A DNA stretch of 39,913 nt from Pseudomonadota bacterium (GCA_043718025.1 JAYSWN010000044.1:1-39913), one strand, 5' to 3'; positions 23,965 through 39,149 are shown, counted from the first letter of the stretch. Program-made: numbers and translations. Notes: a model not told the origin generated them from the sequence alone.

Positions 23965-24065
23965 TTTGGTGGGCTGTGTAGGGATCGAACCTACGACCAC
24001 TGAGCTTCTACGGCTCGCGACTTTTGCATTTGCCCCTACGCTTCGCTTCGGGGAGGCCAACTGAG
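23965..24065 (-). pseudogene. Degenerate tandem copy of tRNA-Arg (intact 3' part, altered anticodon arm, insertion in D-arm)
   Basis: 23965-23998 is identical to 24072-24105 (34 bp). It continues with a degenerate anticodon arm (gagcttctacggctcgcg vs gagcttcggaggctcgcg), ~30 extra nt, then ccaactgag. No 5' acceptor strand. Confidence 0.75.
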
Positions 24066-24073
24066 GAAGTTTT

Positions 24074-24150
24074 TGGTGGGCTGTGTAGGGATCGAACCTA
24101 CGACCTCGAGCTTCGGAGGCTCGCGCTCTATCCAACTGAGCTAACAGCCC
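24074..24150 (-). tRNA. tRNA-Arg(CCG)
   Basis: GGGCTGTTAGCTCAGTTGGATAGAGCGCGAGCCT-CCG-AAGCTCGAGGTCGTAGGTTCGATCCCTACACAGCCCACCA; 77 nt, complete cloverleaf, encoded CCA. Confidence 0.97.
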
Positions 24151-24236: not shown

Positions 24237-25337
24237 TTAGATCGGCTCATTGGCGACAAAACGCGAATAAAAGCTCTGAACTCTCTGACGGGCAACCGCG
24301 TACTGAATTGCCTGAAGAGCGCTGTCCTTTAAAAAAAAGCGGGCGCTGAGCATGAGCGACCACCCTTTTCCGCCAAAAGGGAACAAACGTTCTGGAGGCA
24401 TCATGGCGGTCAAGGCCGTTCGCCGGTGAAAAGCAACGCGTTCGGTAAGACTATCGATAACAAAACGGGGCACCGGCGTTCCCCACTTTTGCAGCACCGA
24501 AAACAGAAACCAAAAAGCGGCATTGGAACAACGGGCATTAATTTCTTTAAGCACCCGCGGCCACCCAAAGTGAGGTTCATTTGCAATTTTTTCAATTAGA
24601 AAATGAATATCGTTCAACCACAACGGTGACTCCAAAAGATGCTGCACCACCGCGTGGCCACCCAAATACAAAAGCTGATCTTCGTAGCTCAGCACCCGCG
24701 CTTCTCCCGGCCAGCCTTCGAAACCTTGGAGAGAACGCTTCCAAAAATCTTTCATCGTTCCCGCGCTATCGCCCTTAAGCAAAAAACTGTGCAGCTCGAT
24801 AACCGGCCGCCCCTCCCCACGCGACATTTCGACCCGAAAACGGCCTGGGTAGTTTACCCCGATAGACTTAAAGCCGCGTTGTTCAAGTCGGCCCATTGCC
24901 TTTGAAAAATCTCGCGGCTTGACCAATAAATCAACGTCCGCCATCGGTCGAAAGATGCGCTCAGGGTACAATCGACGGCCCACGTCCATGCCCTTCAACA
25001 CGATGACCCCCAGCGAAGCGTTGGCTAATGTCTGCAGGGCCTCTTCCATCTCCCAATCTAATAACGCCAGCGCCATGCGCTCGCGGGCTTGGCGCTCAGC
25101 AAAAATCTGACTAACGGTGGAGGGGAGTTGTTTGGCCCATAAGGCGCGTTGAATGACGAGGAGAAAAGGCAGGGCGCAGTGCAGTCTTTGCGCGTAGGCA
25201 TAAGCCGATTCCCAGGTCTCCGCCTCTTTCAAAAACGGCGGCGGAATTTCCAAGGCGCAATAGAATGAGCGCGGATTTAGCGCTTCAAGAACCCACTCCT
25301 GCACCACCCGCCTTAATGACAAAGCCTTCGTAACCAT
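24237..25337 (-). CDS. Nucleotidyltransferase family protein (NTP_transf_5-like)
   Basis: VIVLKG..V...YP....RPMADVDLLV, IELH, EDQLLYL..H, WLNDI. The start is uncertain; ATG 25337 was chosen to minimise overlap with the upstream gene. Confidence 0.88.
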   Translation of the reverse strand: MVTKALSLRRVVQEWVLEALNPRSFYCALEIPPPFLKEAETWESAYAYAQRLHCALPFLLVIQRALWAKQLPSTVSQIFAERQARERMALALLDWEMEEALQTLANASLGVIVLKGMDVGRRLYPERIFRPMADVDLLVKPRDFSKAMGRLEQRGFKSIGVNYPGRFRVEMSRGEGRPVIELHSFLLKGDSAGTMKDFWKRSLQGFEGWPGEARVLSYEDQLLYLGGHAVVQHLLESPLWLNDIHFLIEKIANEPHFGWPRVLKEINARCSNAAFWFLFSVLQKWGTPVPRFVIDSLTERVAFHRRTALTAMMPPERLFPFGGKGWSLMLSARFFLKDSALQAIQYAVARQRVQSFYSRFVANEPI

Positions 25338-25747
25338 GCAAGCCCCCTGGTCGCCCGACGGCAAAAGGCCGCTTGGTATTTTTCCGTATCCACGGTGCGC
25401 AGAGAGCAATAGGCAATCCACCGGTCTAATGCCCGACACTGCCACTTCATTTCGCGGCCGTTTTCTTCGCGACGAAACGCCACGACCCGCCCCCAGAGTT
25501 CGGCGGCGCTAAAACTTTCGGCGATTAAAGAAGCGTCGCCCTTAACCATCCACGAATTTTTTTTAAGCGAAGGGGTGCTGACCACCCGGTGCAACACCCA
25601 AGTGCCCTCGCTATTTCGGCAAAGCACCAACTCACCAAGGCGTGGCGCAGAGTGAGCGTCTTCTTGCTTTAGCCATTCCACTCCTACCCAGTTTCCTGAA
25701 TCGAGAAAAGGGCGCATGCTGCTTCCGTGTAATGAGATCCAATCCAC
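25313..25747 (-). CDS. S24/S26 (signal peptidase I-like) peptidase without N-terminal anchor
   Basis: GSSMRPFL (catalytic Ser box), GELVL, VLHRVV (His base), KGDA, ELWGRVV. Confidence 0.82.
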   Translation of the reverse strand: MDWISLHGSSMRPFLDSGNWVGVEWLKQEDAHSAPRLGELVLCRNSEGTWVLHRVVSTPSLKKNSWMVKGDASLIAESFSAAELWGRVVAFRREENGREMKWQCRALDRWIAYCSLRTVDTEKYQAAFCRRATRGLAWLRRLCH

Positions 25748-25755
25748 GATTTAGC

Positions 25756-25938
25756 TTATGATTTGAGTTTAGCGGCACCACAAAAATCCGGGGCTCCGGT
25801 GCTCGCCTTTCGCCCGCCCGTGGCGACGCCATTGCAAAGAGCCGCCACTGTGGTTAGGGATTCGGTTTTTACCGTAGGCTTGTGGTATTCGAGTTTAGTT
25901 GCCGCCGGCGCGTGCGGCTCTTTTTTATCTGATGACAT
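25756..25938 (-). CDS. Putative RiPP precursor peptide, 60 aa
   Basis: MSSDKKEPHAPAATKLEYHKPTVKTESLTTVAALCNGVATGGRKASTGAPDFCGAAKLKS. GGGGGAG Shine-Dalgarno ahead of ATG 25938; start overlaps the kinase 3' end; YxxP leader motif; sits inside a PqqD/rSAM locus. Confidence 0.85.
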   Translation of the reverse strand: MSSDKKEPHAPAATKLEYHKPTVKTESLTTVAALCNGVATGGRKASTGAPDFCGAAKLKS

Positions 25939-26866
25939 GCGTTTCTCCCCCAAGCTTGTGATTATAGGCCAAAGACGGATTGGCCGACAATAGCCGCCAG
26001 AATCCAAAGTCTTTCTCAAACCTAAGTTTTTTAATTCCGCACGGCGACAAAACCAGTTTAGTCGCCAAGTCAAAACGCTCTTCGCACAGGCGCGAAAAAT
26101 CAGGCGTCATGGCGCTGGCCAAAAGTGCCCGCACCGCCTCAGCCTTACCCATCGCTTCGACGGCGTGATGGGTGGCTTGTTGCAACGCGCAGAGACGATT
26201 TAACAAAATCTTTTTCCGCGGCGGGGCCAAGCGGGAGTAACCGCTGCCAAGCGGTGCCGAATGAAGCCAGGCGTTTTCGCCGTCAAAGCCGATAATTCCG
26301 GCGTCGTCGCCTAAGATAGCCGCGTCAGAAAGGTTCGCGGCCACCAAAGCTACGCTGGTCGACTTACCCGCGCCGCTTTGGCCAAAAAACAGGTACCCCT
26401 GATCGCGGTGCACAAAACTGGCGGAATGCATGAGAAAGCACTGCGCTTGCAACAACAAGTCGGGCAATACCCAGCGAAGCAAGTTGTGAGTGGCGTCGCC
26501 AACTTCTTGCAAATTGATGAAGGCAGCGACCCTTAGGGGATCACCCTGGCGCTGAATGCGACGGGCCGCAAAATCTCGCTGAACCACGCTATCGCCGCGA
26601 GATTCAAATTCGGGATCTTCATCGTGCCAAATATTAGAGTGGGGCACGCCGGTTAGCGGTTCTACAAAAATTTCGGCGGCCACCGGACCGGTATCCCGGT
26701 ATTCGTGAAAATAGCCTTCCCACTCTTTTCGCAACTCGTCCGAATGCGTCGAAAGCGTAAACCGAACTCCAGCAACGTTAATGGTGAGTGGTCTAGGCGC
26801 CAGGGCAAAAATGCCGGGTATTGGTATCTGCGAAAGGTGATGAAATAGATAAGCGCGGCGCTGCAT
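25925..26866 (-). CDS. HPr kinase-like P-loop protein (peptide kinase candidate)
   Basis: LMHSASF, Walker A FGQSGAGKSTS and ILGDDAGII: the His / P-loop / DD arrangement of HprK/PEPCK-type kinases. Confidence 0.85.
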   Translation of the reverse strand: MQRRAYLFHHLSQIPIPGIFALAPRPLTINVAGVRFTLSTHSDELRKEWEGYFHEYRDTGPVAAEIFVEPLTGVPHSNIWHDEDPEFESRGDSVVQRDFAARRIQRQGDPLRVAAFINLQEVGDATHNLLRWVLPDLLLQAQCFLMHSASFVHRDQGYLFFGQSGAGKSTSVALVAANLSDAAILGDDAGIIGFDGENAWLHSAPLGSGYSRLAPPRKKILLNRLCALQQATHHAVEAMGKAEAVRALLASAMTPDFSRLCEERFDLATKLVLSPCGIKKLRFEKDFGFWRLLSANPSLAYNHKLGGETHVIR

Positions 26867-26986
26867 TTTGGAACCCCGAGTATATAGCCATCAACCGCGC
26901 TAGAACACCGCTTTGCGTTGCGGCATTTAGCCCAAACGCCATTACCCGGTTGCCCATAAAAATTCTGTCTGTTTAAATTGACGTCT

Positions 26987-27253
26987 ATGATCCCAAAACG
27001 TCCCCTCAACCTGCCTTGGCGTGAAGTGGATGGCCACGTGGTGATTTTATCGCCCAAGACCTCGACCATTCATGAACTCAATTCTGTAGCGAGTTTCTTG
27101 TGGATCGCGGCCGATGGGTTAAAGAGCAATCACGAATTGGCGGACGCACTCACCGAACGGTTTGCGGTGGAGCCAGCAACCGCGATGAAAGACGCCGATT
27201 TTTTTTTTAGCGAATTAAAGACGCTGGGTTTAATTTCACTCCACGAGGCTTGA
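26987..27253 (+). CDS. PqqD family protein / RiPP recognition element (RRE)
   Basis: WREVDGHVVIL....IHELNSVASFLW...DG......LADALTERFAV.....KD...F..EL...GLI; TGATG overlap with the rSAM gene. Confidence 0.93.
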   Translation: MIPKRPLNLPWREVDGHVVILSPKTSTIHELNSVASFLWIAADGLKSNHELADALTERFAVEPATAMKDADFFFSELKTLGLISLHEA

Positions 27254-28281
27254 TGTCCATCGTCAACCACTGGCGCGATAAGTTTTCGCAAAACTTAATT
27301 CCCATGCAGGTGACATTTGAACTCACCTACCACTGCAATGAACGGTGCAGTCACTGTTACCTCTCCACTTTTGACGATAGAACCGACGGGCGCCCGACCC
27401 TCACCCTCACCGAATGGAAGGGTATCTTAGATCAACTGGCCCATGCGCGGGCACTCTATTTGGTGTTGATCGGTGGCGAAGCCATGATGCACCCGCAGTT
27501 TTGGCAAATTGCTGAATACGCATCGCAAAAAAACTTTGCGCAAAGCCTAATCACCAATGGACTGCTACTCGATGAAGCGGCGGCAGAAAAACTTGCCGCC
27601 AACAGTTTTTATCAAGTCACGGTCAGCTTTTATTCCTTAGACGCCAAGGTGCACGACAAAATGACCCGCCGAGCGGGCTCGCACGCCAAGACCCTGGCGG
27701 CCATCGGTTTATTGAAGAGAAAAGGGCTGCAGGTGGGAATCAACTGTCTGCTCACCCGTGAAAGTATTGGCGGCAGTTTTGCGCTTAAGGAGTGGGCCGA
27801 GGCCCAAGGCATTCCCATTTCATTTGATCCCATGGTGACGGCAAAAATTGATTCTTCACTGGGCTCCACCGGCGAGCGGGCAACCCCAGAGCAGCTGAAA
27901 TGGTATTACCGTGAATTAAAGAACCGGGGGGCCGGCCCGAAACCGCAAACCGAGGTCGATCCGAATGCGGTGATCTGCAACGCCGGTCGCGGAAAATGCG
28001 CGGTGAACCCGTACGGTGATCTGCTCACTTGTTTAGAAGTGCGCGAACCGATCGGTAATCTGCGAAAGCACACTTTCGATGAACTCTGGCGCTCGCCCCA
28101 AGCCGAAAAACTGCGCGGCTACCGCAACCGCGATCTCAAATTTGACTCATCGTGCGACACCGGCGCCTTTTGCGATCACTGCCCGGGAATGGCCGGAAGT
28201 GAGACCGGAGATCGCATGGCACCCGTCCCCTTTTTGATGGAATTGGCCCAGATAAAACGTGAAGTTTTCGAAGAAATTTAA
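27253..28281 (+). CDS. Radical SAM/SPASM-domain peptide maturase
   Basis: ELTYHCNERCSHCY (CxxxCxxC), LIGGEA, ITNG; C-terminal CNAGRGKCAVNPYGDLLTC, IGNL..FDELW and CDTGAFCDHCPG. Confidence 0.93.
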   Translation: MSIVNHWRDKFSQNLIPMQVTFELTYHCNERCSHCYLSTFDDRTDGRPTLTLTEWKGILDQLAHARALYLVLIGGEAMMHPQFWQIAEYASQKNFAQSLITNGLLLDEAAAEKLAANSFYQVTVSFYSLDAKVHDKMTRRAGSHAKTLAAIGLLKRKGLQVGINCLLTRESIGGSFALKEWAEAQGIPISFDPMVTAKIDSSLGSTGERATPEQLKWYYRELKNRGAGPKPQTEVDPNAVICNAGRGKCAVNPYGDLLTCLEVREPIGNLRKHTFDELWRSPQAEKLRGYRNRDLKFDSSCDTGAFCDHCPGMAGSETGDRMAPVPFLMELAQIKREVFEEI

Positions 28282-28504: not shown

Positions 28505-31500
28505 TTGAAGAAGAACGGTTCAAAAATTTGGCGTTTCATTTACGCGCTGTGTCTGCTCGCTTTTTTTATAGGCACCAACCAGGCAAACGGGGCCTGCACG
28601 CTTGGAACCGATAGCTGCTGTTTGAGCACCGGTGGTCCAAGCGATAACGCGGCCACTCAATACATTTGGGAACCGAACACTCCCTATTCTGGACTTTGGA
28701 ATTGGTACAACCACTGGCGCGTGCAAGCCGATCCCAACAGCATCCCCGACGGAAAATCGGGAGGCACCGCCTGTGGTGGCACGACCACTCAGTGTTTGGG
28801 TACCGCCGGCGCGGTGGTCGCGGGATCTGCCGCGAACGAATACGCCTACATCCAATCCGACTGGCGAATTCCCGCCTACCCCGTAAACAACTACACGCTT
28901 TCGTGCCTTAAGATCGCTTCGGGCACCATGACCACCGCCAATGGGGTGACCATCACCATTAACTCGCCCGCGGTAGTTACCGTCGACGGCGCCGGCACCG
29001 GCGCGAGCCAGGGCCACATGTACGCGGTGAATACCCCAATTCGTTTCTACACCACCGGGGCACTGCCGACTGGCCTGACCGCGGGAACTCTTTACTTCGT
29101 TCAGTCAGTTCCCGCCGCGAACACCTTTACCGTTTCCGCCACGTCCGGGGGAGCGGCGATCAATACCAGCGGAAGCCAATCCGGCGCACACCGTGTGACC
29201 CAAGTGGCCACGACCACGATCACCATCCCCACCAACGCCACGGTAACGACTCCGATCACGGGAAAATCGACGACGAGCATTTCGATTCCAACCCCCGCCA
29301 CCGTAACTCAGGTGGATAGCTCGGTGACCAGCGCGTTTGCCGCATCGGCAGCGGCGGTGACAATTTCGGTAACCAGTGGCACTCGCTACGTGCAGTACAG
29401 TAACAGCGGCTTGTTGGTAAACGATGCCGTGATGTTCACGGCCGGCACTCTGCCCTCGCCACTTGCCTCAAATACGGCGTACTACGTAAAAGCGGTGAAT
29501 GGCGCCGGAACGGATCGCTTTACCCTAACCGACAGCCCGGGTGGACCCGTTATTACCATTGCCGCGGACGCCACGGGCCTTACGCTGCACCGAAGTGCAA
29601 TCACGTTCGCTGGTCACGGCCTTTCGGCGGGTGACCCGGTAGTCTTCGCCACCTCCCGCGCCCCGATGACCGCGGGCACCATTTATTACGTTTCAGCCGA
29701 CTTACCACCGACAACTAACCTTTTCGATATCTCCACCACCCCCGGGGGAACCCACCTGACGATCACCGGAACGGGCAATAGCGTTATGACCCGCCAAGCC
29801 GTCCGTTGGCCAAGTCACGGCTTAGTTGCCGATGCACCGGTGCAATTTACGGGGGGCACCCTTGCCGCCGGACTCACCGCCAGCACGGTCTATTATGTAG
29901 TAGGGGCAGCCGCCGGCATTGCCGGCCCGGCGACAAACTCCTTTTCGGTTAGCGCTACGATAGGCGGCGCACCGATCGTAACCACGGCCGATAGCAGCCC
30001 CACGGTTACCGGATTTCAGCCAAGTACTTTTTCGTACACCGCCCACGGCATGGCGGCCGGAGCGCCGGTCAACTTCACCACTACCGGCACGCTGCCTACC
30101 GGCCTCACCGCCGGAACCATTTACTACGTGGCCGCCACCCCTGCTCCGTTGACCGATAGTTTTTATATTGCGGCCGCCCCGGGCGGAGCAGTGATTCGGG
30201 CAACGGCGGCCGGCACCGGCACTCACACCGCGAACAAGCCGGGCGTTGTAAACTGGGCGACGCACGGTCTGCCGGCCGGCACGGCCGTTCTCTTTTCCGG
30301 TGGAACTCTCCCGTCTGAAATCACGGCGAATGCCCTTTACTACGTACTGGCCACTCCCACGATTCAGGCCGGAAGTTTTTCTATCGGCACGACGGCCGGC
30401 GGAACCGCGATCCCCTTCACCGGCAGCACCGCCGCCACGATCACCGGCAAACAGCCGGGTGTGGTCACGTTAAACGCGCACAATCTTTCCGCCGGCTACC
30501 CAGTGATTTTTAGCACTTCTGGGGCACTCCCCACCGGTTTAACCGCGGGAACCACTTACTACGTTGCCAGTTTTCCCGCGCCCACCGCAAACACCTTTGC
30601 CGTTTCGGCGACCGCCGGGGGGGCCCCCATCGCCACCACGGGCACGCAATCCCCAACGCACACCCTGTCCACCGTGATGACCATTGCGGCCGAGTTTTTT
30701 AGCAATCCAAATTCAGGTTCGCTCACCACCACCAATCAGTTTCTTCTCAATATGGCCGGTGCGGCGGAACAGACTTTAACCAACGTGGACCCCATCAATC
30801 ATTTAAATATCTCTAATAACACCACCGTTAATCTTACCGACAATTTTACCGTCAGCGATAACTTCACCATCGCCGATGGAACCGGTATCGTAAAAATCAA
30901 CAACAGTCTGCTGATTTCAAAATCAACCACCCCGGTTACGATTCCCGCCAGCGCAACGCTTGAAATTCAGAGCGACGCCATCTTCACCGCTTTGGGTGGT
31001 GTCGTCGTCAACGGCGTTCTGAAAGTGAAAGCGGGAGGAACCCTGCTCATAGGTAACGGCAAGACCCTACAGGTGAACGCCGGGGGCGTTCTCCAGCTCA
31101 TTGGTAACTCGGGCGCCGTCGCCAAAATTGACGCCGTCGATGGTGGTTCTACTTACATCTTGAATGTGGCCGGCTCAGTTAACGCCAACTACTTTTCGAT
31201 CAGCCGCACGACGGCGCCCGGCCTCAACATCACCACCGCGGGTTCAGACTCAATCCAAACTCTTTCAAACGGCGAGTTTCACTACTTAGCCTCCGGCGGA
31301 TACGCGGTCACGCTCAACACCGCCAAAGACGTTCCCACCTCACCAAACCCAAGTGGCCTGGGCTTCTTTGACGATTTTGCCTACGCCAATACTAAGAATT
31401 TTAATGCAACTAACTACACCGGCGTAGCGTTCACCGTAAGCCAATGGTCGGGCCTGGGAAACACGGCCTACGAACTCGACCCGTCCTCCAAAGTAGGTTG

Positions 31501-34500
31501 GGGAACTCAAGCCCCCGTGGCACTCCAAGTGACCAATGCCTCCGCTTCGGGCAGCCCACCCGCAACGATTGGCCGCAACTCGGCAGAAACGCTCTTTGCT
31601 ACATTTGGCTTTTCTCTAAATGGTTCCGGCACCGCAACGGATATCACCTCGGTGACTTTTACCCTGGGCGGAAACAATACGGCATCGGACGTTCAGTACG
31701 GGCGAGTGTATCGTGACACCAACGCTAACTGCCAATACGATCCGGGCGTGGACTTGCAAGTAGGATCCGATCTCTACTTCAACAACTACCCGGGCATCGC
31801 CACGGTAACCATTCCGGCAACCCAATTATCGGTCAACAGCACCACTTCCAAGTGCCTTCACGTCACCCTGGCGACAAGCCTCAATGCCCACATAAGCTCG
31901 ACGATACAGTTAAAAATTGCCGGTACCGCAGATGTGACCAACTCGCAAGCCTACGCTTTCTCAAGCGCCAGCGGCCCACCGGTACAAGGCGGTACCTCTA
32001 CCGTAGTCGTGGGCGGCTCCTCCATTAAAGTTTGGAACGGGGGAAACGGAACGGCTGCGGCAGCCCAAAACTGGAACGCAAATGTTACGGACTGGACGCC
32101 CAGCGGAGTGCCCGGGGCAAGCGGTACCGACGACTGCCAGATTGGTCCCGCTTATTCTTACTTGCAACTGAACGCCAACTACAGCTGCCTTAACGTAAAT
32201 CTTCCTAACAACGGAAAAATGTCTTTTAGCCCCACGACGAATACGTTCACCGTTTTGGGTGCCCTCACTATCGGTTCGTCTTACACCTTTGCTACTTCGG
32301 GAAACTTCACTTTCGCTTCGACCGTAGCCAATCAAAGCATCACCGCAAACACTGCTTTTCCCGGTAACGTTACCATCAACAATACGTTCAACTCAGGGGC
32401 CGGGATTGTTTCGGTAGACAGTGATTTTACCGTTGGCGGCGACCTGACGCTGACGTCGGGAGTGCTTCGGGTGACTGCGGGCAACACCCTCTACGTAAAC
32501 GGCAACATCAACGTAAATGGCGGAACCCTAAAGATCGAACCCGGGGCCTCCGTGGTTTTAGGCGATGGAAAAACGCTAACCGTAGGCGCCTCCGGAACTC
32601 TTGAGATGGTGGGAAGCTCGGCGCAAAACTCCAATTTCACCTGTGCCGGTACGACCACCGGTTGCGCGGTTACGGTAAACGGCACCATCAAAGCTCAATA
32701 CTATTCTTTCAGTAAATTGGCGGTCAGCGGCGTTACGATCAACTCGGGCGCCACCATTGACCCTACCTACTATCTACAAAATGGGGCGTTCACTTTTCCG
32801 GTGGGCACCAACCCCGTCCTGCTTACTCTCAATCGACAAGTGCCCAGCACCACCTGGAATTCGATGGTTTTCGATAAAAACGGATCCTCCGCTACGGGGG
32901 CAAAATCGATCGTCACTACGGCTACGGCTTCACCAAATCCGTCCCTCACCATCAATAACTACAGCGGCGATCTTACCGGCAATGCCTTCACGACCGATAT
33001 TCCCTACGACATCATTTGGGCGATACCCACTACGACATTAAAAATTACGACGGAAGACTTAGTTTCGACTTCGTGGTCAGCTACGGTCACCATTTCGGGT
33101 GCGGCAACGCCAGCCGTAGTCACTTGGGCGTCGCACGCGCTAGCGGCCGGAACGCAAGTTAGTTTTACTACCACGAACGCTTTGCCAACCGGGTTGTCGC
33201 CCTTAACGGCTTACTACGTGGCCGCCTCACCGGCGCCCACCGCCACTACTTTTTCAGTGGCGGCGACGGCAGGCGGAGCGGCGATCAACACCACCGCCGC
33301 CGGATTGGGCATTCAAACCGCCACACCTGCCCCTATTTCCGATGTAGCGTCTCCGGCGGTAATTGCTTGGAAATCTCATGCGCTAACCGCAGGAGCTCAG
33401 GTCACTTTTACGACTAACGGCACGTTGCCCACGGGTTTAGCTACCGCCACCATTTATTATGTTGCGAGCTCACCGGCACCCACCGCGAACACCTTTTCGG
33501 TGTCGACCACCTCCGGAGGCGCAGCCCTCAACACCACGGTTGCCGGCACGGGAACCCACGCCGCTAACTCTACGGCCAACAATGCGAATCAGGGCGATAC
33601 CTCGGTGCGCGCCGGGTGGTTTGGGTTTCAAGAGACTACGGCCGGAACTTTTGCGAACACCGATCTGACATCGATCAAGATCACCTTAGACGGTACTGGC
33701 GCTTCTTCCGACGTTTCGAGTGCTCGCTTGTATTACGATTCTACATGCGCCGGTTCGGGCGGCACCTTTGTGGGAACCGCCCAAACTTTTTCGGGCAGTC
33801 CGGCCACCATTACGTTTGGAAGTTTGACCGGCGTTACGGTGCAATCAGACGTAACCTCCCCGCCAAAACGATGCGTCTACGTTGAATACGACGTGGCCTC
33901 CGCCGCCACCTCCGGCGCCACCGTAATCGCAAAAATTCAGGCCAACGGCGATGTCGTCAATTCTCAAACCTACGCCTTTAATGGCTCGTTCTCGCCGCCT
34001 AAAAATGGCCGTACGATCGCGGTAGTGGGCAACACCACCACTTGGGTAGGCACCACTTCGACCGATTGGTTTACCGCCACCAACTGGAGTCCACCCCTGG
34101 TTCCCACTTCGGCCAAAAACTGCATCATCAATGATGTTACCAACGACCCCGTCATCAACGCCGCCGGAGCAGTCTGTAAATCTCTCACCATCGGTAACGG
34201 TATTCTTACGATCAATAGCGGCCGCAATTTAGATGTATTTGGATCATTGACCAACACCGGCACGATAAGCCAAGCCGCCTCGTCGTCCACCATCACCATT
34301 AAAGATGGCGGAACGATCACTAACCAAACACTACAGAGTTCGTCGGCGCTAAACTACTTGGTTTTCGATAAAACGGCGGGCGGTTACGTCTACATCGGAA
34401 ACCAAAACCTAACGATCAACAACTTCACGATTGGTAGCGGCAAGAATTTTATCTTCAACGTACGTGCCGGCGATACGCTCACCTTACCAAACGGGGCAAC

Positions 34501-37500
34501 CCTTTCCTCCGCCACTTTCCAAGTGGATGGGGATGGCACGGTGGCCGTGGGCAGCGGCCAAACTTTTCTCGTTAACGGAGCTACCGTCAAAGCCAACGGC
34601 ACCAACGATGGCTGTATCACCTCTTATCCCGGCACTACCTGCATGGCGGGTAAGGCTCTGTTCACGCGCAGCGGGGGATCGGGCACTTGGTCTTTCCAAA
34701 CCACCTCCGGGGTGGTCGATTTTACGGGTTGGACGGTTGAATGGATGGATTGCAACGGCATGCAAATTGGCGGCACCACGCAAGTCACTAACTTTAATGG
34801 CGGGCAAATTCGCAACATGCCGACGGGTTGTGGAACGTTCTACGGACTGCAGCTCAATAACTCAGGGGGACTTCCTTCGACCGCCGACTACGTTGGTTTC
34901 AATTGGGGGCCGAACAACACGCCATTGGCCCCGGGTACCGCTTACAATCTAATTCGCTCCACCGGCTGCAATGCCAATACGATGAGTTTCACCAATTGGT
35001 TCGGTGATTTTTCTGTTGCGCTAGATCAACCCGTCCCGTCGACCAAGATCACCACTTCCAACTGCACCATCAACATGACCGCTGCGGCCTCGCTGGTCGC
35101 GTTGACCGAAATCTTCAAGGCAACGCCTTTCAACGCGTTGGTTCGCCTCACTTGGACCACCGGTTTGGAATCGCTGCACCAGGGGTTCAACGTTTATCGC
35201 AGCACCTCGCCTGACTCAGGCTACGCGCAAATAAATGGCTCGCTGATCCGTAACCCCGTCCAGGGAGGATCGATTCACGGCAGTTATGACTTCCGCGATT
35301 CCGGGGTGACCAATAACGTAACTTACTACTATCGCCTCGAAGACATCGCTACCAATGGAGTGCGGACCATCCACGGTCCAGTAGCCGCCACTCCCAAGGC
35401 TGCACTCGGCGCGGCTCCCGCTCCCACGGGTAACGCGGTGGTGGCCGGCAATGCGTCCGGAAGTGGAACCCCGGCTTCCGATGAGTCAACGCCCGGGATT
35501 CTCAACCTGGCCCCCGGCGTAAGCCAGCTCGCCAAAACAAAAAATTCACTCCGCCTGCGCATCGAGATACCCGCGGTGGTTCGCGCCGCTTCGGAGGTTG
35601 GTGGTTATGAGCAATTGAGCATTGAAGGCTACGCCACATCGACTGAGGCAGGAAAGCCTGAACTTCCTGAGCGCGCCCTATTGATTGAAGTGCCGCGTTC
35701 AGAAGTGGCCACCTTTGCCGAAGTCTCGCGGACTTCGAACACCTTAAACACGCTTAATGTCGTACCGGCCAAGACTTATAGTGTTGATAGCAACGGTAAC
35801 CTAGTCTCCTCGCGCGCCCCAGACGGCACGTTCTACGCCACCAACGCGGCGCTGCCGGCTTCGCCAATTGAAATCAAAGACATCATCGAAAACCAAGGGC
35901 TTTTTTACTTACCGATTATCGTAAAACCGATTCGCTACAACCCGGTAAACCAGCAAGCCACCGCCCTGACGCAAATCACGTTTGACGTCCATTTTTCGGG
36001 AAGCCCGAATTGGAACATTGGTTCACCGGTGAGCGAAAGCGGGGCCTGGGGTTACGAAGGCTCGCTTAAGATTCATATTAAAAAATCGGGCCTCTATAAG
36101 CTGCGCTACTCCGATCTCGTTAACGCCGGAGTAGACGGCCCGTTTGTGGGAGCCAATACGAGCAAGCTTCGCCTTTTTTCGGGCAGCGGCGAAATGCCGA
36201 TGCAAATCACCAGCGCCGACACCACTTTTAACGACGGCGACGAAATCCGTTTCTTTGCCCCCTATTTCAGTTCGGTTGAGTCCGATCGCAACTCGCTAGT
36301 TCTCTACGTTGATACCGTGGACGGTTTGCGCATGGATTCAATGGTAGCCACGCCCAGCGGCAATGCCAGCACGCAGGCGAGCTACGCTCGACGTTTCGAG
36401 ATAAAAAGCTCTCAATACGCCTTATTTAGCGACCCAGTGGGTGCGGGGGCGGAGCACATCTATTGGAGTTACCACTATTTTTCGGCCGCCCAGAATAGCG
36501 GGTCGCCCGACTTTAACACCGACCTAAACCTTCCGGGGCTGGTGAATAGCGGCACCGTCCGAATCCGACTATCGCTAAAGGGGAGTCGCGGTGGACAGCT
36601 TCAAAATCCGATCCATCACCTAAAAGTTTACGTAAACGGATCTTTCAGCGACTCAGGTGATGCTGAATTCCAAACCAATGAACCTTACTCAGTGCAGTTC
36701 GATATTCCGGCCTCCCAGTTTATTGAAGGCCGCAATAGCATCCGAGTGCGCGTAATGGGTGATCGAACCGGAAACGATTTTGATCGCGTGAACTTCGAAA
36801 AGCTTTCGGTGGAGTATCCGCACCGCTGGTCAGTAGAATCGGGAGTGGCGGAGGTGCTCAACTATAAGGCCGGAAAAGACATCATGCTGGATGGTCTCAC
36901 TAGCGGTACCGTTTCTGTTTACGACATCACGACGGTGGATGACGTGGTTCGCCTCACCGGCTTTGGAATTTCACAAGACAACGGCAATTTCGCGGTATCG
37001 TTTGCCACGGCCTCGGGAGATCCGTCGCTCGGACGCCGACTACAAGTGGTGGCCGATAGCGCCGTACTCTTACCCTGGGCGCTGGAGCTTAACCCCGGTT
37101 CGAACCTTAAAGCCACCAACCAAGGCGCCGATGTGCTTTACATTGGCCCACGTCGATTGATGAGCCCGGTGGCACGTTTGGCGGCACAACGCCGCGACGA
37201 TGGTTTCCGTACGGCGCTGGTGACCACCGAAGATATCTACTCAGAGTTTGGAAATGGCATTCGCTCGCCGCAAGCGATCAAAGATTTTATTGCGTACGCC
37301 TACGCCAACTGGCAATCGCCGGCTCCAAAATACGTGGTGCTGATCGGCGATGCTTCGTACGATCCCAAAAACCAATTGGGTTACGGTTTGGCTTCGGGAG
37401 TTCCAGTCTACCTAAATAAAGGTGTCTACGCTGACTACGGCGACGACCACTTCTACGCCTCATTGGTTAGCGGTAGCGACGTCCCCCTTGTTTCTTTAGG

Positions 37501-38461
37501 TCGAATTCCGGGTAACAATGCGAGCGACATTGGCCTGTACGTCTCAAAAGTGCTGGCCTACGAAAATGGCAGCGCCCGCCCGACCGGAGCCGCCCAAGCC
37601 CGCTTAACCGTAATTAGCGATACCGATCTCAATGGCGGCGAGCAGTTTGATGCCAAGATTGATCGCTTGGCGGCGCTGATTCCCCAGCTGTGGAACCCAC
37701 TGATTACGATTAATCAATTAAAGCGGAGTCAACTCGGCGATGCAAATTTGAAAGCGGGAATTCTCGACGCCTTTAATTCTGGTTCGTTACTTATTCATTT
37801 CTTAGGTCATGGGGCGGAAGATCGATGGGCTGACTCAGCGGTATTCTGGAAAGCGGATGCCGAGGCATTGACCAACACTCAGCTACCCATCGTCGTCGCC
37901 ATGAACTGCTTGAATGGCTACTTCTACGACGCGGATCCGACGGTGAAGAGTTTAACCGATAGCTTATTGTTCAACGCTAACGGCGGCGCGGTGGCGATGT
38001 TTGCCTCGACTTCGCTCACCTCACCCGAACTACAGGTTCCGATGCAAGATGCGCTATACGAGTACTTGGCCAAAAACCCAGGCAGCCGACTGGGCGACGC
38101 CGTTCGAATTGCCAAAGTGCAGTCAGGCATCAATGCGGGTACCGCCGAAGTGATTCGATCGTGGACGTTGTTCGGCGATCCGATGTTGCGGGTAAATGTT
38201 CCCATCAAGACCACGGCCTCGCTCGCTGTCCCGGTGGTTTCGGATGCGAAGGTGGCGGAGAGCACCGGTAGTTTAGCCGGATCTTCTTGCGCCAGCATTC
38301 GCGACCACGGCAGAAAAATGGGCCGTCCCGGCTGGGGCGCCTTCGCCGAGATCATGATTATGCTATTTGCAATCGTGGGCGGACGATTGATGATGCGCCA
38401 AGCGGCGGTTGTAAAAGTTCGCAGGTCACCTTTGCTTAAAGGGCAACGTCGGTCGAAATAG
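28505..38461 (+). CDS. Giant (3318 aa) secreted/surface repeat protein with C-terminal C25 (gingipain/PorU-like) cysteine peptidase domain
   Basis: GAGGT SD plus TTG start; signal peptide; Thr/Gly/Ala-rich repeats; FN3-like domain (LTWTT..E...GFNVYRS...YDFRD....TYYYRLEDI); C25 propeptide-like GKPELP; C25 motifs EDIYSEFG.G..SP.AIK.F, YVVLIGDASYDPK, LGRIP, FLGHG (His codon 37808), AMNCLNGYF (Cys codon 37907), LFGDP; C-terminal TM segment. Confidence 0.9.
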   Translation: MKKNGSKIWRFIYALCLLAFFIGTNQANGACTLGTDSCCLSTGGPSDNAATQYIWEPNTPYSGLWNWYNHWRVQADPNSIPDGKSGGTACGGTTTQCLGTAGAVVAGSAANEYAYIQSDWRIPAYPVNNYTLSCLKIASGTMTTANGVTITINSPAVVTVDGAGTGASQGHMYAVNTPIRFYTTGALPTGLTAGTLYFVQSVPAANTFTVSATSGGAAINTSGSQSGAHRVTQVATTTITIPTNATVTTPITGKSTTSISIPTPATVTQVDSSVTSAFAASAAAVTISVTSGTRYVQYSNSGLLVNDAVMFTAGTLPSPLASNTAYYVKAVNGAGTDRFTLTDSPGGPVITIAADATGLTLHRSAITFAGHGLSAGDPVVFATSRAPMTAGTIYYVSADLPPTTNLFDISTTPGGTHLTITGTGNSVMTRQAVRWPSHGLVADAPVQFTGGTLAAGLTASTVYYVVGAAAGIAGPATNSFSVSATIGGAPIVTTADSSPTVTGFQPSTFSYTAHGMAAGAPVNFTTTGTLPTGLTAGTIYYVAATPAPLTDSFYIAAAPGGAVIRATAAGTGTHTANKPGVVNWATHGLPAGTAVLFSGGTLPSEITANALYYVLATPTIQAGSFSIGTTAGGTAIPFTGSTAATITGKQPGVVTLNAHNLSAGYPVIFSTSGALPTGLTAGTTYYVASFPAPTANTFAVSATAGGAPIATTGTQSPTHTLSTVMTIAAEFFSNPNSGSLTTTNQFLLNMAGAAEQTLTNVDPINHLNISNNTTVNLTDNFTVSDNFTIADGTGIVKINNSLLISKSTTPVTIPASATLEIQSDAIFTALGGVVVNGVLKVKAGGTLLIGNGKTLQVNAGGVLQLIGNSGAVAKIDAVDGGSTYILNVAGSVNANYFSISRTTAPGLNITTAGSDSIQTLSNGEFHYLASGGYAVTLNTAKDVPTSPNPSGLGFFDDFAYANTKNFNATNYTGVAFTVSQWSGLGNTAYELDPSSKVGWGTQAPVALQVTNASASGSPPATIGRNSAETLFATFGFSLNGSGTATDITSVTFTLGGNNTASDVQYGRVYRDTNANCQYDPGVDLQVGSDLYFNNYPGIATVTIPATQLSVNSTTSKCLHVTLATSLNAHISSTIQLKIAGTADVTNSQAYAFSSASGPPVQGGTSTVVVGGSSIKVWNGGNGTAAAAQNWNANVTDWTPSGVPGASGTDDCQIGPAYSYLQLNANYSCLNVNLPNNGKMSFSPTTNTFTVLGALTIGSSYTFATSGNFTFASTVANQSITANTAFPGNVTINNTFNSGAGIVSVDSDFTVGGDLTLTSGVLRVTAGNTLYVNGNINVNGGTLKIEPGASVVLGDGKTLTVGASGTLEMVGSSAQNSNFTCAGTTTGCAVTVNGTIKAQYYSFSKLAVSGVTINSGATIDPTYYLQNGAFTFPVGTNPVLLTLNRQVPSTTWNSMVFDKNGSSATGAKSIVTTATASPNPSLTINNYSGDLTGNAFTTDIPYDIIWAIPTTTLKITTEDLVSTSWSATVTISGAATPAVVTWASHALAAGTQVSFTTTNALPTGLSPLTAYYVAASPAPTATTFSVAATAGGAAINTTAAGLGIQTATPAPISDVASPAVIAWKSHALTAGAQVTFTTNGTLPTGLATATIYYVASSPAPTANTFSVSTTSGGAALNTTVAGTGTHAANSTANNANQGDTSVRAGWFGFQETTAGTFANTDLTSIKITLDGTGASSDVSSARLYYDSTCAGSGGTFVGTAQTFSGSPATITFGSLTGVTVQSDVTSPPKRCVYVEYDVASAATSGATVIAKIQANGDVVNSQTYAFNGSFSPPKNGRTIAVVGNTTTWVGTTSTDWFTATNWSPPLVPTSAKNCIINDVTNDPVINAAGAVCKSLTIGNGILTINSGRNLDVFGSLTNTGTISQAASSSTITIKDGGTITNQTLQSSSALNYLVFDKTAGGYVYIGNQNLTINNFTIGSGKNFIFNVRAGDTLTLPNGATLSSATFQVDGDGTVAVGSGQTFLVNGATVKANGTNDGCITSYPGTTCMAGKALFTRSGGSGTWSFQTTSGVVDFTGWTVEWMDCNGMQIGGTTQVTNFNGGQIRNMPTGCGTFYGLQLNNSGGLPSTADYVGFNWGPNNTPLAPGTAYNLIRSTGCNANTMSFTNWFGDFSVALDQPVPSTKITTSNCTINMTAAASLVALTEIFKATPFNALVRLTWTTGLESLHQGFNVYRSTSPDSGYAQINGSLIRNPVQGGSIHGSYDFRDSGVTNNVTYYYRLEDIATNGVRTIHGPVAATPKAALGAAPAPTGNAVVAGNASGSGTPASDESTPGILNLAPGVSQLAKTKNSLRLRIEIPAVVRAASEVGGYEQLSIEGYATSTEAGKPELPERALLIEVPRSEVATFAEVSRTSNTLNTLNVVPAKTYSVDSNGNLVSSRAPDGTFYATNAALPASPIEIKDIIENQGLFYLPIIVKPIRYNPVNQQATALTQITFDVHFSGSPNWNIGSPVSESGAWGYEGSLKIHIKKSGLYKLRYSDLVNAGVDGPFVGANTSKLRLFSGSGEMPMQITSADTTFNDGDEIRFFAPYFSSVESDRNSLVLYVDTVDGLRMDSMVATPSGNASTQASYARRFEIKSSQYALFSDPVGAGAEHIYWSYHYFSAAQNSGSPDFNTDLNLPGLVNSGTVRIRLSLKGSRGGQLQNPIHHLKVYVNGSFSDSGDAEFQTNEPYSVQFDIPASQFIEGRNSIRVRVMGDRTGNDFDRVNFEKLSVEYPHRWSVESGVAEVLNYKAGKDIMLDGLTSGTVSVYDITTVDDVVRLTGFGISQDNGNFAVSFATASGDPSLGRRLQVVADSAVLLPWALELNPGSNLKATNQGADVLYIGPRRLMSPVARLAAQRRDDGFRTALVTTEDIYSEFGNGIRSPQAIKDFIAYAYANWQSPAPKYVVLIGDASYDPKNQLGYGLASGVPVYLNKGVYADYGDDHFYASLVSGSDVPLVSLGRIPGNNASDIGLYVSKVLAYENGSARPTGAAQARLTVISDTDLNGGEQFDAKIDRLAALIPQLWNPLITINQLKRSQLGDANLKAGILDAFNSGSLLIHFLGHGAEDRWADSAVFWKADAEALTNTQLPIVVAMNCLNGYFYDADPTVKSLTDSLLFNANGGAVAMFASTSLTSPELQVPMQDALYEYLAKNPGSRLGDAVRIAKVQSGINAGTAEVIRSWTLFGDPMLRVNVPIKTTASLAVPVVSDAKVAESTGSLAGSSCASIRDHGRKMGRPGWGAFAEIMIMLFAIVGGRLMMRQAAVVKVRRSPLLKGQRRSK

Positions 38462-39149
38462 TATAGTCAGACTTACCTTCCACTACTTTATAACTGTCGA
38501 CGTCATTCATGCCCCATTTTACGGCCAAGGCGTCGTAAATTTTTATCCAGCGTGAGTCGTTACCCTTGTCCTGCGCTTGAGAGTAGGTTTCTCCCCCTCC
38601 CCACGCTTTTAGAAACGTCGGAAGGTCGTGCGCGCCATTGGCGTTGACGCGGCGGGCGCCACTGGCCACTTTAAATCCGGCCGCGAGCCAATCGCCGGTG
38701 TGCGTAGCGCCGTAGCAGGCGGTGGAATTTAAGGCGCGAAGCTTGGTGGCTGAACCCGCAATGGCGGTTACGGCGGCGCGCACGTCTTTCATCGAAATTG
38801 CGCCTTCGTAAAAAGTGAGCGCCCCTTCATTGCCATGAACGTTGATGTAGGTATCGATGGCCATAGTTTCGACGCTGGCCACTTCGGCTTTAAGCGCGGC
38901 GAAAAAATTTTTGCTCGTGGCCTGGGCTCCGTTGAGCACGACCACTTTTCGGTACATAGGCTTGATTCTATTTTTGGTCTCCGCCAATCCTGCTGCCTCA
39001 ATCAAGTCATAGACCTGCTTTTTATCGGACGCGGCGTGAGTCGCCAGCTCAATCACCACCACCGCCACTCGGCCCGTGCGATCGACGGCCGCGTGCGCGC
39101 CTCCGCATAGAATTGTTGCCGCTAATGATCCAAAAATAACTGCTTTCAT
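38436..39149 (-). CDS. Secreted hypothetical protein, possible clan CD (caspase/CHAT-like) fold
   Basis: Signal peptide ending AHA; IDTYINVHG and LRALNSTACYG motifs; stop overlaps the giant gene's 3' end by 26 bp. Confidence 0.7.
   Translation of the reverse strand: MKAVIFGSLAATILCGGAHAAVDRTGRVAVVVIELATHAASDKKQVYDLIEAAGLAETKNRIKPMYRKVVVLNGAQATSKNFFAALKAEVASVETMAIDTYINVHGNEGALTFYEGAISMKDVRAAVTAIAGSATKLRALNSTACYGATHTGDWLAAGFKVASGARRVNANGAHDLPTFLKAWGGGETYSQAQDKGNDSRWIKIYDALAVKWGMNDVDSYKVVEGKSDYTISTDVAL

Follow-up and report, generated by a model that had tools for sequence, protein, structure and literature searches.

A conserved six-gene radical SAM peptide cassette with lasso-type tailoring enzymes and a giant C25 partner protein

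Tailoring enzymes of the lasso peptide type are encoded on a contig of 39,913 nucleotides from a Pseudomonadota bacterium (GCA_043718025.1, JAYSWN010000044.1) together with a radical S-adenosylmethionine (rSAM)/SPASM enzyme and a short precursor peptide, beside the gene of a giant C25 protein and with no lasso cyclase or ABC exporter among the encoded proteins. The whole contig, C173 of source genome G000, is called the window here. The locus raises the questions of what kind of ribosomally synthesized peptide with post-translational modifications (RiPP) such a set produces, and whether the giant protein has a part in it.

The six-gene cassette and its precursor peptides

Open reading frame (ORF), Pfam and NCBIfam analysis of the window bore out the gene positions and the divergent two-arm layout given in the initial annotation. 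On the minus strand lie an HprK-like kinase (25925..26866), the precursor P0001 (25756..25938), an S26-type peptidase of the Ser-His-Asp (SipW/archaeal) kind (25313..25747) and a nucleotidyltransferase of the NTP_transf_5 (PsmN-like) family (24237..25445; PF14907, 105 bits), the likelier start of which is ATG 25337, overlapping the S26 stop. On the plus strand, a stand-alone PqqD/RiPP recognition element (RRE) gene (26987..27253; PF05402, 54 bits) overlaps the start of the rSAM/SPASM gene (27250..28281; PF04055 and PF13186). The arms are separated by exactly 120 bp (26867..26986), in which no sigma-70-type match was found and a promoter and terminator scan stayed at chance level. All six cassette genes are single-copy in G000.

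Searches with the rSAM enzyme yielded 18 genome loci, 78 metagenome loci (from the best 80 of 222 matches) and regions from further genomes, and the closest titled relatives of the window belonged to Bdellovibrionota/Oligoflexia. After 13 duplicates were taken out by hand, 46 loci of at least 12 kb remained, several Acidobacteria-like ones (a label based on Atlas taxa) being near-identical kin. All six genes were present in 37 of the 46; gene by gene, the kinase was found in 45, the precursor in 44, PqqD in 42, the S26 peptidase in 41 and the nucleotidyltransferase in 40. Fifteen loci had contributed to the search profiles, and the full set was present in 25 of the 31 that had not. Gene order differed widely between loci, and fusions occurred (PqqD with rSAM in L022, S26 with nucleotidyltransferase in L148). 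The initial annotation had named co-occurrence of all the genes elsewhere as a check on the locus, and these counts confirmed that the six genes form a real, conserved RiPP cassette.

The 60-amino-acid precursor P0001 carries a Tyr18-x-x-Pro21 leader, Cys35, Lys44, Cys53 and a C-terminal Ser60. A C-terminal Ser was found in all 55 distinct precursors from cassette loci, 53 of which have two Cys and two have three; 13 further precursors from a search of the phylum gave 12 Ser ends and one Thr end. A profile built from 31 precursors and run against 1.84 billion representatives returned 552 clusters (50% identity) at E ≤0.001. The last residue among the best 150 matches was Ser in 125, Thr in 17 and another residue in 8; among 58 matches aligned short of the terminal column, 50 ended in Ser and three in Thr. 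As background, 5.9% of the reading frames of G000 end in Ser.

The predicted core was equally regular. A Lys lies between the two Cys in 52/52 parsed locus precursors and 134/137 parsed profile matches, mostly preceded by Gly, and an Ala or Gly stands three residues ahead of the first Cys (52/52 and 132/137), with a small residue two positions before it (small-x-small site). The first Cys mostly follows the leader Tyr by 17-19 residues, the Cys-Cys loop spans 8-17 residues in locus precursors, and the second Cys is 5-8 residues from the end. No aromatic residue (Tyr, Trp or Phe) is conserved in the cores, and Asp or Glu at core positions 7-9 is absent from P0001 and present in 6-7 of the 55 locus precursors and 14 of 146 profile matches. 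NCBIfam models gave no match to the window precursor and ten relatives, ten precursor clusters had only "hypothetical protein" as source names, and an ESM Atlas search with the precursor found only unnamed clusters with a recognition score below threshold. Judged from its sequence, P0001 heads an unnamed family with a leader, a predicted signal-peptidase-type site, a Cys-Lys-Cys loop and a terminal Ser or Thr.

Thr-ending precursors were observed at L142:10754-10933 and among the profile matches P0018, P0021, P0034, P0066, P0087 and P0139. A Gly run directly before the first Cys was present in 10 of 17 Thr-ending versus 8 of 125 Ser-ending precursors. N-terminal oligo-Gly is the classic sortase nucleophile, yet G145, with a precursor of the Thr-ending, Gly-run type, has no C25.

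Neither the kinase nor the S26 peptidase had a Pfam match above cut-off. The kinase was identified by an invariant His, a GxSGxGK[S/T]T motif and Asp-Asp/Glu, together with weak HprK-related matches; H147, G162-S164-G165-G167-K168-T170 and D187 were invariant among its homologues, and its comparison with solved structures gave 0 matches. Its His-Lys-Asp-Asp set is that of lasso-peptide kinases, HprK-type enzymes reported to phosphorylate the linear precursor at its C-terminal Ser (PMC9266682). The KG and DxD motifs of the nucleotidyltransferase were intact in the window copy and in 52/52 homologues. For pseudomycoidin, the addition of one or two hexoses to the Ser phosphate depends on PsmN, in which a DxD motif is essential, and the mechanism of this addition was left open by its authors (PMC6993621).

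The S26 peptidase was identified by its GxSMxP, HR and GD boxes (kept in 54, 57 and 57 of 57 homologues) and by relatives with matches (E 2e-11 to 4e-12) to the archaeal signal peptidase I/SipW models; against TIGR02228 these relatives scored 44-46 bits, below the model cut-off of 51.85. No hydrophobic helix that could serve as membrane anchor was found in the window enzyme (maximal hydropathy 0.95). We predict that it is the leader peptidase: a small-x-small site is the specificity of signal peptidases, and the site in the precursors fits this, so that the predicted core begins x-x-Cys. Two more S26-like genes occur in G000 (C74:28701-31946 and C41:53279-53695), one after another ABC/permease pair and one before glycosyltransferase-like genes.

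In the rSAM enzyme the CxxxCxxC motif is intact. Of the SPASM Cys residues, C243, C261 and C308 were kept in all 87 homologues, C311 in 80 and C250 in 59, and in the clade of the window enzyme the second auxiliary cluster was degenerate at its CxxC and its final Cys. The top NCBIfam scores were to MftC, NirJ and AhbD models, all far below cut-off (MftC 112.5 of 265 bits; PqqE 72.8 of 381), as were those to the characterised maturases StsB (91 of 625) and AlbA (77 of 850). The best solved-structure match by sequence profile was SkfB (E 3e-28). An AlphaFold model searched with Foldseek placed the enzyme among RiPP SPASM enzymes (CteB, SuiB, PqqE; 15-21% identity) and singled out no reaction. Cross-linking of the core by this enzyme is plausible.

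Variants of the cassette were also observed. In L143-L147 and L150, a second rSAM subtype with the full SPASM Cys set accompanies a precursor of this kind; two PqqD genes are present in each of L143 and L144, and no PqqD was detected in L033-L035. Each of the genomes G006, G016 and G115 has an additional cassette whose precursor is divergent (L020, L021, L150); L020 and L021 adjoin glycosyltransferase genes, and L150 includes an ABC pair and a methyltransferase. A three-rSAM variant (L148:5186-12910, L149:8100-12696) has a three-Cys precursor with a Ser end and occurs in genomes without C25; L148 also contains an ABC pair, a methyltransferase and a WcaJ-like sugar transferase besides its S26-nucleotidyltransferase fusion. 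At L095:725-11071, kinase and rSAM homologues are divergent from the gene of a 2798-amino-acid kelch-repeat protein, and the candidate precursor ends in Gly. L024, with a full cassette, a giant C25 and an rSAM enzyme of 65% identity, lies in a 5.1-Mb genome titled candidate division WWE3, which is likely misassigned or misbinned. L118 is without the cassette despite its rSAM likeness. The kinase and the nucleotidyltransferase had no match among plasmids, and the only plasmid match of the rSAM enzyme (31%) lay in a YcaO/TfuA cluster, a different system; an rSAM likeness of about 30% is therefore not specific.

Relation to known peptide systems

With the paeninodin/pseudomycoidin lasso clusters (PadeK/PsmK, PsmN, B1), the cassette shares the YxxP leader, the stand-alone RRE, an HprK-like kinase with the His-Lys-Asp-Asp set, an NTP_transf_5-type enzyme and the C-terminal Ser. 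Unlike these clusters, it has no cyclase, no B2 peptidase and no ring Asp/Glu, and what it adds is the rSAM/SPASM enzyme, the S26 peptidase, an ABC-2 exporter, the giant C25 protein and, in the precursor, two invariant Cys together with a Lys. The B2 peptidase (PF13471) was not found in G000, which is 92% complete, and all PF00733 matches of this genome lie on other contigs (C102, C81, C82). We therefore rejected membership in the lasso peptides on the lack of a macrolactam synthase in the cluster, of a B2 peptidase and of Asp/Glu at core positions 7-9. The proposal that lasso-type tailoring enzymes are here paired with an rSAM enzyme instead of a cyclase has held up, given the wide co-occurrence, the C-terminal Ser of the substrate and the absence of a B2 peptidase match.

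A resemblance to SynChlorMet (TIGR04248-04251) had been proposed as well. The types of gene are indeed shared, namely PqqD, rSAM/SPASM and an HprK-related protein with weak matches, as they are with HPr-rel-A/B (TIGR04352, 04353, 04355) and GeoRSP (TIGR04302, 04303), but the likeness to SynChlorMet is only distant and every Scm model was far below cut-off. Membership was rejected on scores of 25.7 of 100 for ScmD, 72.5 of 400 for ScmE and 68.3 of 400 for ScmF, with no ScmC match of the window kinase; ScmC reached 30-32 of 125 bits in relatives, and the three-rSAM variant L148 also stayed below 80 of 400. Whereas the SynChlorMet cassette has two rSAM/SPASM genes, the window cassette has one, and it adds the precursor family, S26 peptidase, nucleotidyltransferase and C25 partner. 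The marker proteins of HPr-rel-A (11.9 of 200), HprK_rel_B (27.5 of 200) and GeoRSP (73.8 of 400) were likewise below cut-off, and these systems were rejected too. The cassette and the SynChlorMet, HPr-rel and GeoRSP systems are probably cousins in one superfamily.

Sactipeptide and ranthipeptide clusters (SkfB, CteB, StsB, AlbA) also combine an RRE-guided rSAM/SPASM enzyme with a Cys-bearing precursor. They differ from the cassette in their rSAM enzymes (about 15-21% identity), and no acceptor residue keeps a constant spacing from either Cys in the cassette precursors; a kinase, nucleotidyltransferase, S26 peptidase and C25 partner are not known to be part of such systems. Mycofactocin/PQQ-type membership was rejected on MftC and PqqE scores below cut-off and on the absence of a conserved aromatic residue from the core, which also led us to reject a cyclophane-type product.

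A full-text literature search found no paper describing this gene set; subscription rSAM-RiPP atlases lay outside the search and may list the family as an uncharacterised cluster. Nothing relevant was found in the main text or searchable supplements of PMC7470986, PMC12710340 and PMC10288494. The cassette is a new RiPP family. Even on a cautious reading, it is an undescribed, wide family with a readable precursor grammar, and as a system of six genes with one rSAM enzyme it is small enough for E. coli. It makes testable what PsmN-type nucleotidyltransferases transfer, whether a soluble S26 enzyme can remove the leader of a RiPP, and which role PorU-like C25 domains have where type IX secretion is not involved.

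The giant C25 protein and the exporter

The giant (28505..38461, plus strand; 3318 amino acids; PF01364, 253 bits; PF08126) comprises a signal-like N-terminus, a repeat passenger of about 2190 amino acids, an FN3-like domain of about 110 amino acids (35081..35410), a C25 propeptide, a C25 (gingipain/PorU-like) domain (37136..38194) and a C-terminal tail with a Cys motif, a hydrophobic segment and an Arg/Lys cluster (38282..38458), all on the same strand. In complete giants the FN3-like domain lies about 1000 amino acids before the C-terminus, and this constant part, made up of FN3-like domain, propeptide, C25 domain and tail, is joined to passengers of about 200 to 2400 amino acids. In an alignment with PorU and RgpB, His3102 and Cys3135 match the catalytic pair (solved structures 4ief, E 1e-13, and 6za2, E 6e-13), and the pair is kept in every complete giant C25 domain aligned. 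The PorU sortase of type IX secretion, with its Wbp/Vim linking sugar, shares this domain and His/Cys pair; here, in contrast, the domain is fused to a passenger and a Cys-transmembrane-Arg tail, and the linker that we propose below is a ribosomal peptide rather than a seryl or glycyl sugar. The score to the PorU2 model was 175.7 bits (cut-off 450).

The tail has the MYXO-CTERM/JDVT-CTERM type of architecture, with Cys motif, hydrophobic segment and Arg-rich end, although the curated models were not matched by the window tail, which gave no NCBIfam sorting-signal match at E 0.05. It is present on every complete Bdellovibrionota giant inspected and absent from the C25 proteins of L091 and L094. 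G000 has one Rce1-like gene, and C25 goes unmentioned in the accessible part of the myxosortase preprint.

We searched 161 genomes of the phylum for the rSAM enzyme, kinase, C25 and FN3-like domain. The rSAM and strong kinase matches selected the identical 18 genomes; the neighbourhood was read in 17 of them, and in the other, G130, the kinase lies 2 kb from the rSAM gene. PF01364 matches occurred in 58 genomes; a frame of at least 1400 amino acids was confined to 16, and these are exactly the genomes with the FN3-like domain. Cassette and giant occurred together in 15 genomes, the giant alone in one, the cassette alone in three and neither in 142, and none of the 42 genomes with only short C25s had the cassette. 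In the genome with the giant alone (G002; 90% complete, 540 contigs), the giant and the exporter permease described below were present and the cassette was not found. The giant adjoins the cassette in 11 of the 15 genomes, lies clearly elsewhere in G082, G130 and G164, and is of uncertain position in G115 because of contig ends; the three distant cases argue against one block moving as a whole. Seven families take part, and within f1 and f10 the presence of the cassette goes with that of the giant and not with that of the short C25s. The giant C25 protein belongs to the cassette system. The initial annotation had treated it as a mere neighbour, a view that does not survive the presence of the cassette in 15 of 16 giant-bearing genomes.

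Phylogeny and gene structure were in line with this. A C25 tree separated 24 cassette-type domains, including the distant-group L091 and L094, from 11 short ones with an SH-like approximate likelihood ratio (SH-aLRT) support of 97, and another tree without the row of the window itself gave the same split (99/97); both trees were built without an outgroup. The genes for kinase, PqqD, rSAM enzyme and precursor are flanked in L091 by a gene for passenger plus FN3-like domain on one side and a stand-alone C25 gene on the other, and these two flanking genes correspond to one fused gene in L094 (E 9e-26). A small gene immediately upstream of the kinase gene encodes the FN3-like domain in L085 and L093; longer homologues of this stand-alone protein were not found, which is weak evidence. 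A complex predicted between the C25 domain and residues 29-60 of the precursor scored 0.02 and has no bearing either way. Further giants were also observed: a second one in G000 (C15:21799-28902, L160) is 50-62% identical, has its own Cys-transmembrane-Arg tail and has no cassette beside it in the stretch examined, and G001, G006, G016 and G082 have 2-3 giants. With several giants per genome, one cassette may serve more than one.

Clustering of the neighbours of 69 loci showed that an ABC ATPase/ABC-2 permease pair is the commonest companion of the cassette (ATPase 21, permease 19), followed by GT4 glycosyltransferases (18) and WecA/MraY-like proteins (7); no macrolactam synthase, oxidoreductase, immunity or regulator gene was among the recurring neighbours. 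At C78:3145-4622, G000 has an orthologous exporter pair, with the permease at E 8e-57 and the next best match at 2e-11. Permease matches at E ≤1e-20 occurred in 16 of the 161 genomes, namely 15 of the 18 cassette genomes and G002, and weak matches near 1e-16 in two cassette-free genomes. The cassette has a dedicated ABC-2 exporter, which tracks it across the phylum, and its product is likely exported. The locus is accordingly not self-contained as first described, with an exporter orthologue on contig C78 and a co-inherited giant C25. That no exporter is adjacent is correct for the window, but the argument for a non-antibiotic role drawn from this falls with the pair on C78 and the exporters of many cassettes.

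Cassettes without an adjacent C25 often lie amid glycosyltransferase, WecA-like, epimerase and chain-length genes. Some Acidobacteria-like cassettes are accompanied by an unnamed secreted beta-propeller of about 600 amino acids, the predicted fold of which resembles PQQ_2 propellers (TM-score ~0.53-0.57); its gene lies directly upstream of that for the precursor or downstream of that for the rSAM enzyme. Such propellers were seen at L067:6333-8153, L062, L064, L076 and L103:7865-9748.

A possible function and its rivals

By analogy with PorU, we tentatively propose that the product is an exported linker peptide tied to a surface glycan via phospho-Ser, and that the PorU-like C25 domain ligates its protein onto this peptide. 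We favour this proposal because a two-ended linker uses all the parts. PqqD would bind the YxxP leader and present the precursor to the rSAM enzyme, as expected from knowledge of the family and suggested by the gene coupling and the one fusion. The rSAM enzyme may then modify the core at or near Cys35; a Cys thioether is our first guess, with chances somewhat short of even, and other Cys chemistry, epimerisation or C-terminal decarboxylation are alternatives. The kinase very probably phosphorylates Ser60 of the linear precursor. To judge from PsmN, the nucleotidyltransferase is somewhat more likely than otherwise to activate the Ser60 phosphate, so that a sugar or glycan would be joined by a phosphodiester. 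The S26 peptidase would probably cut after Ala32, at the small-x-small site in the Ala30-32 region, releasing a 28-residue core starting x-x-Cys, and export by the ABC-2 pair seems quite probable. PorU joins the C-termini of its cargo to a linking sugar of the seryl or glycyl type (PMC7468200); by analogy, the C25 domain might cut the protein near the FN3-like domain and transfer it to the new N-terminal amine or to Lys44, the weakest step of the scheme.

Several observations weigh against the linker proposal or against the link to C25 on which it builds. The giant scored 219.1 bits against the PorU model NF033707, with a cut-off of 420, and Ser replaces the catalytic Cys in the C25 of L091. 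Each giant has its own Cys-transmembrane-Arg tail, so a second anchor may be needless. Genomes G145, G148 and G161 (99, 97 and 94% complete) have the cassette and exporter and no C25, and the same holds for the genome of L031, where the cassette is complete and the precursor typical; the precursors of the first three differ, with a Thr end and Gly run or with three Cys. Among five further titled genomes, the giant was found in two and no C25 match in three, including that of L031, and no C25 was found within the flanks examined of the Acidobacteria-like loci, some of which have the secreted beta-propeller instead. The C25 partner is thus not universal. The 1400-amino-acid threshold for a giant was set after the data had been viewed, and the co-occurrence counts include kin and hence are non-independent. 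Of the 16 genomes with strong permease matches, 9 were in the permease alignment, and in the profile search the match was absent from the cassette genomes G050, G082 and G130. Finally, five of seven weaker precursor candidates outside the count ended in Ser, and those of L118 and L095 did not.

Other explanations account for parts of these data. The peptide could act on the C25 domain itself, with the Cys-closed loop offering Lys44 as P1 residue of a tethered inhibitor, activator or clipped substrate. A near-invariant Lys inside a loop that two Cys close and that varies in length (8-17) is how canonical protease-inhibitor loops are laid out, gingipains cut after Lys or Arg, and the same co-inheritance of giant and cassette applies. 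However, the Lys is kept in precursors of C25-free genomes (L142, L148, L149), and the kinase, nucleotidyltransferase and glycosyltransferase neighbours are left unexplained; we consider this explanation unlikely. Slightly less likely still, the peptide might decorate a capsule or surface glycan, with the giant binding non-covalently, for example through its FN3-like domain, or merely sharing a surface lifestyle. The glycan genes around cassettes without adjacent C25, the cassette-only genomes and the stand-alone FN3-like domain beside the kinase in L085 and L093 agree with such a decoration, which explains neither the His/Cys pair kept in all complete giants aligned nor the cassette in 15 of 16 giant-bearing genomes.

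That the peptide becomes a metal-binding or redox cofactor appears improbable. The rSAM enzyme would alter the two Cys (to a thiooxazole or similar) or decarboxylate the C-terminus, and a secreted enzyme would receive a nucleotide-linked cofactor assembled by kinase and nucleotidyltransferase, in keeping with the MftC, NirJ and AhbD top scores, the two invariant Cys and the coupling of some Acidobacteria-like cassettes to a PQQ_2-like secreted propeller; all model scores are far below cut-off, though, no aromatic residue is conserved, no oxidoreductase recurs among the neighbours, and an exporter is present. Equally improbable is a diffusible phospho- or glyco-sactipeptide with an antimicrobial or signalling role, the C25 gene being an island passenger. 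A dedicated exporter, SkfB as best solved-structure match and a flanking tRNA gene with a duplicated 3' end would suit it, but giant and cassette still co-occur where they lie far from each other (G082, G130, G164) and in many different gene orders, the same few core positions are conserved across distant groups, and no immunity or regulator gene recurs.

Should the linker proposal be correct, RiPP chemistry would have a structural role in cell-envelope assembly, Bdellovibrionota included, whose surface proteins matter for attachment. Doubtful at present is a wider idea, in which the RiPP serves as a structural rivet: hardened by the rSAM enzyme, exported, attached to surface glycan by its C-terminal phospho-Ser and acylated on its N-terminus or Lys by a self-encoded PorU-like transpeptidase, it would let giant adhesins of several phyla sort themselves to the surface without a type IX system. 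Such a RiPP-based pathway for anchoring proteins would also hint at the purpose that kinase and nucleotidyltransferase have in paeninodin-type lasso clusters.

Two features flank the system in the window. A 237-amino-acid ORF on the minus strand (38436-39149), whose N-terminus is signal-like, matched neither Pfam nor NCBIfam models; next to the giant it is kept in L016 alone, a locus of the same genus. At the other end, outside the pathway, lies a tRNA-Arg(CCG) gene on the minus strand (24074..24150), the 3' end of which is part of a 34-bp exact repeat (copies at 23965-23998 and 24072-24105), possibly the scar of an old integration.

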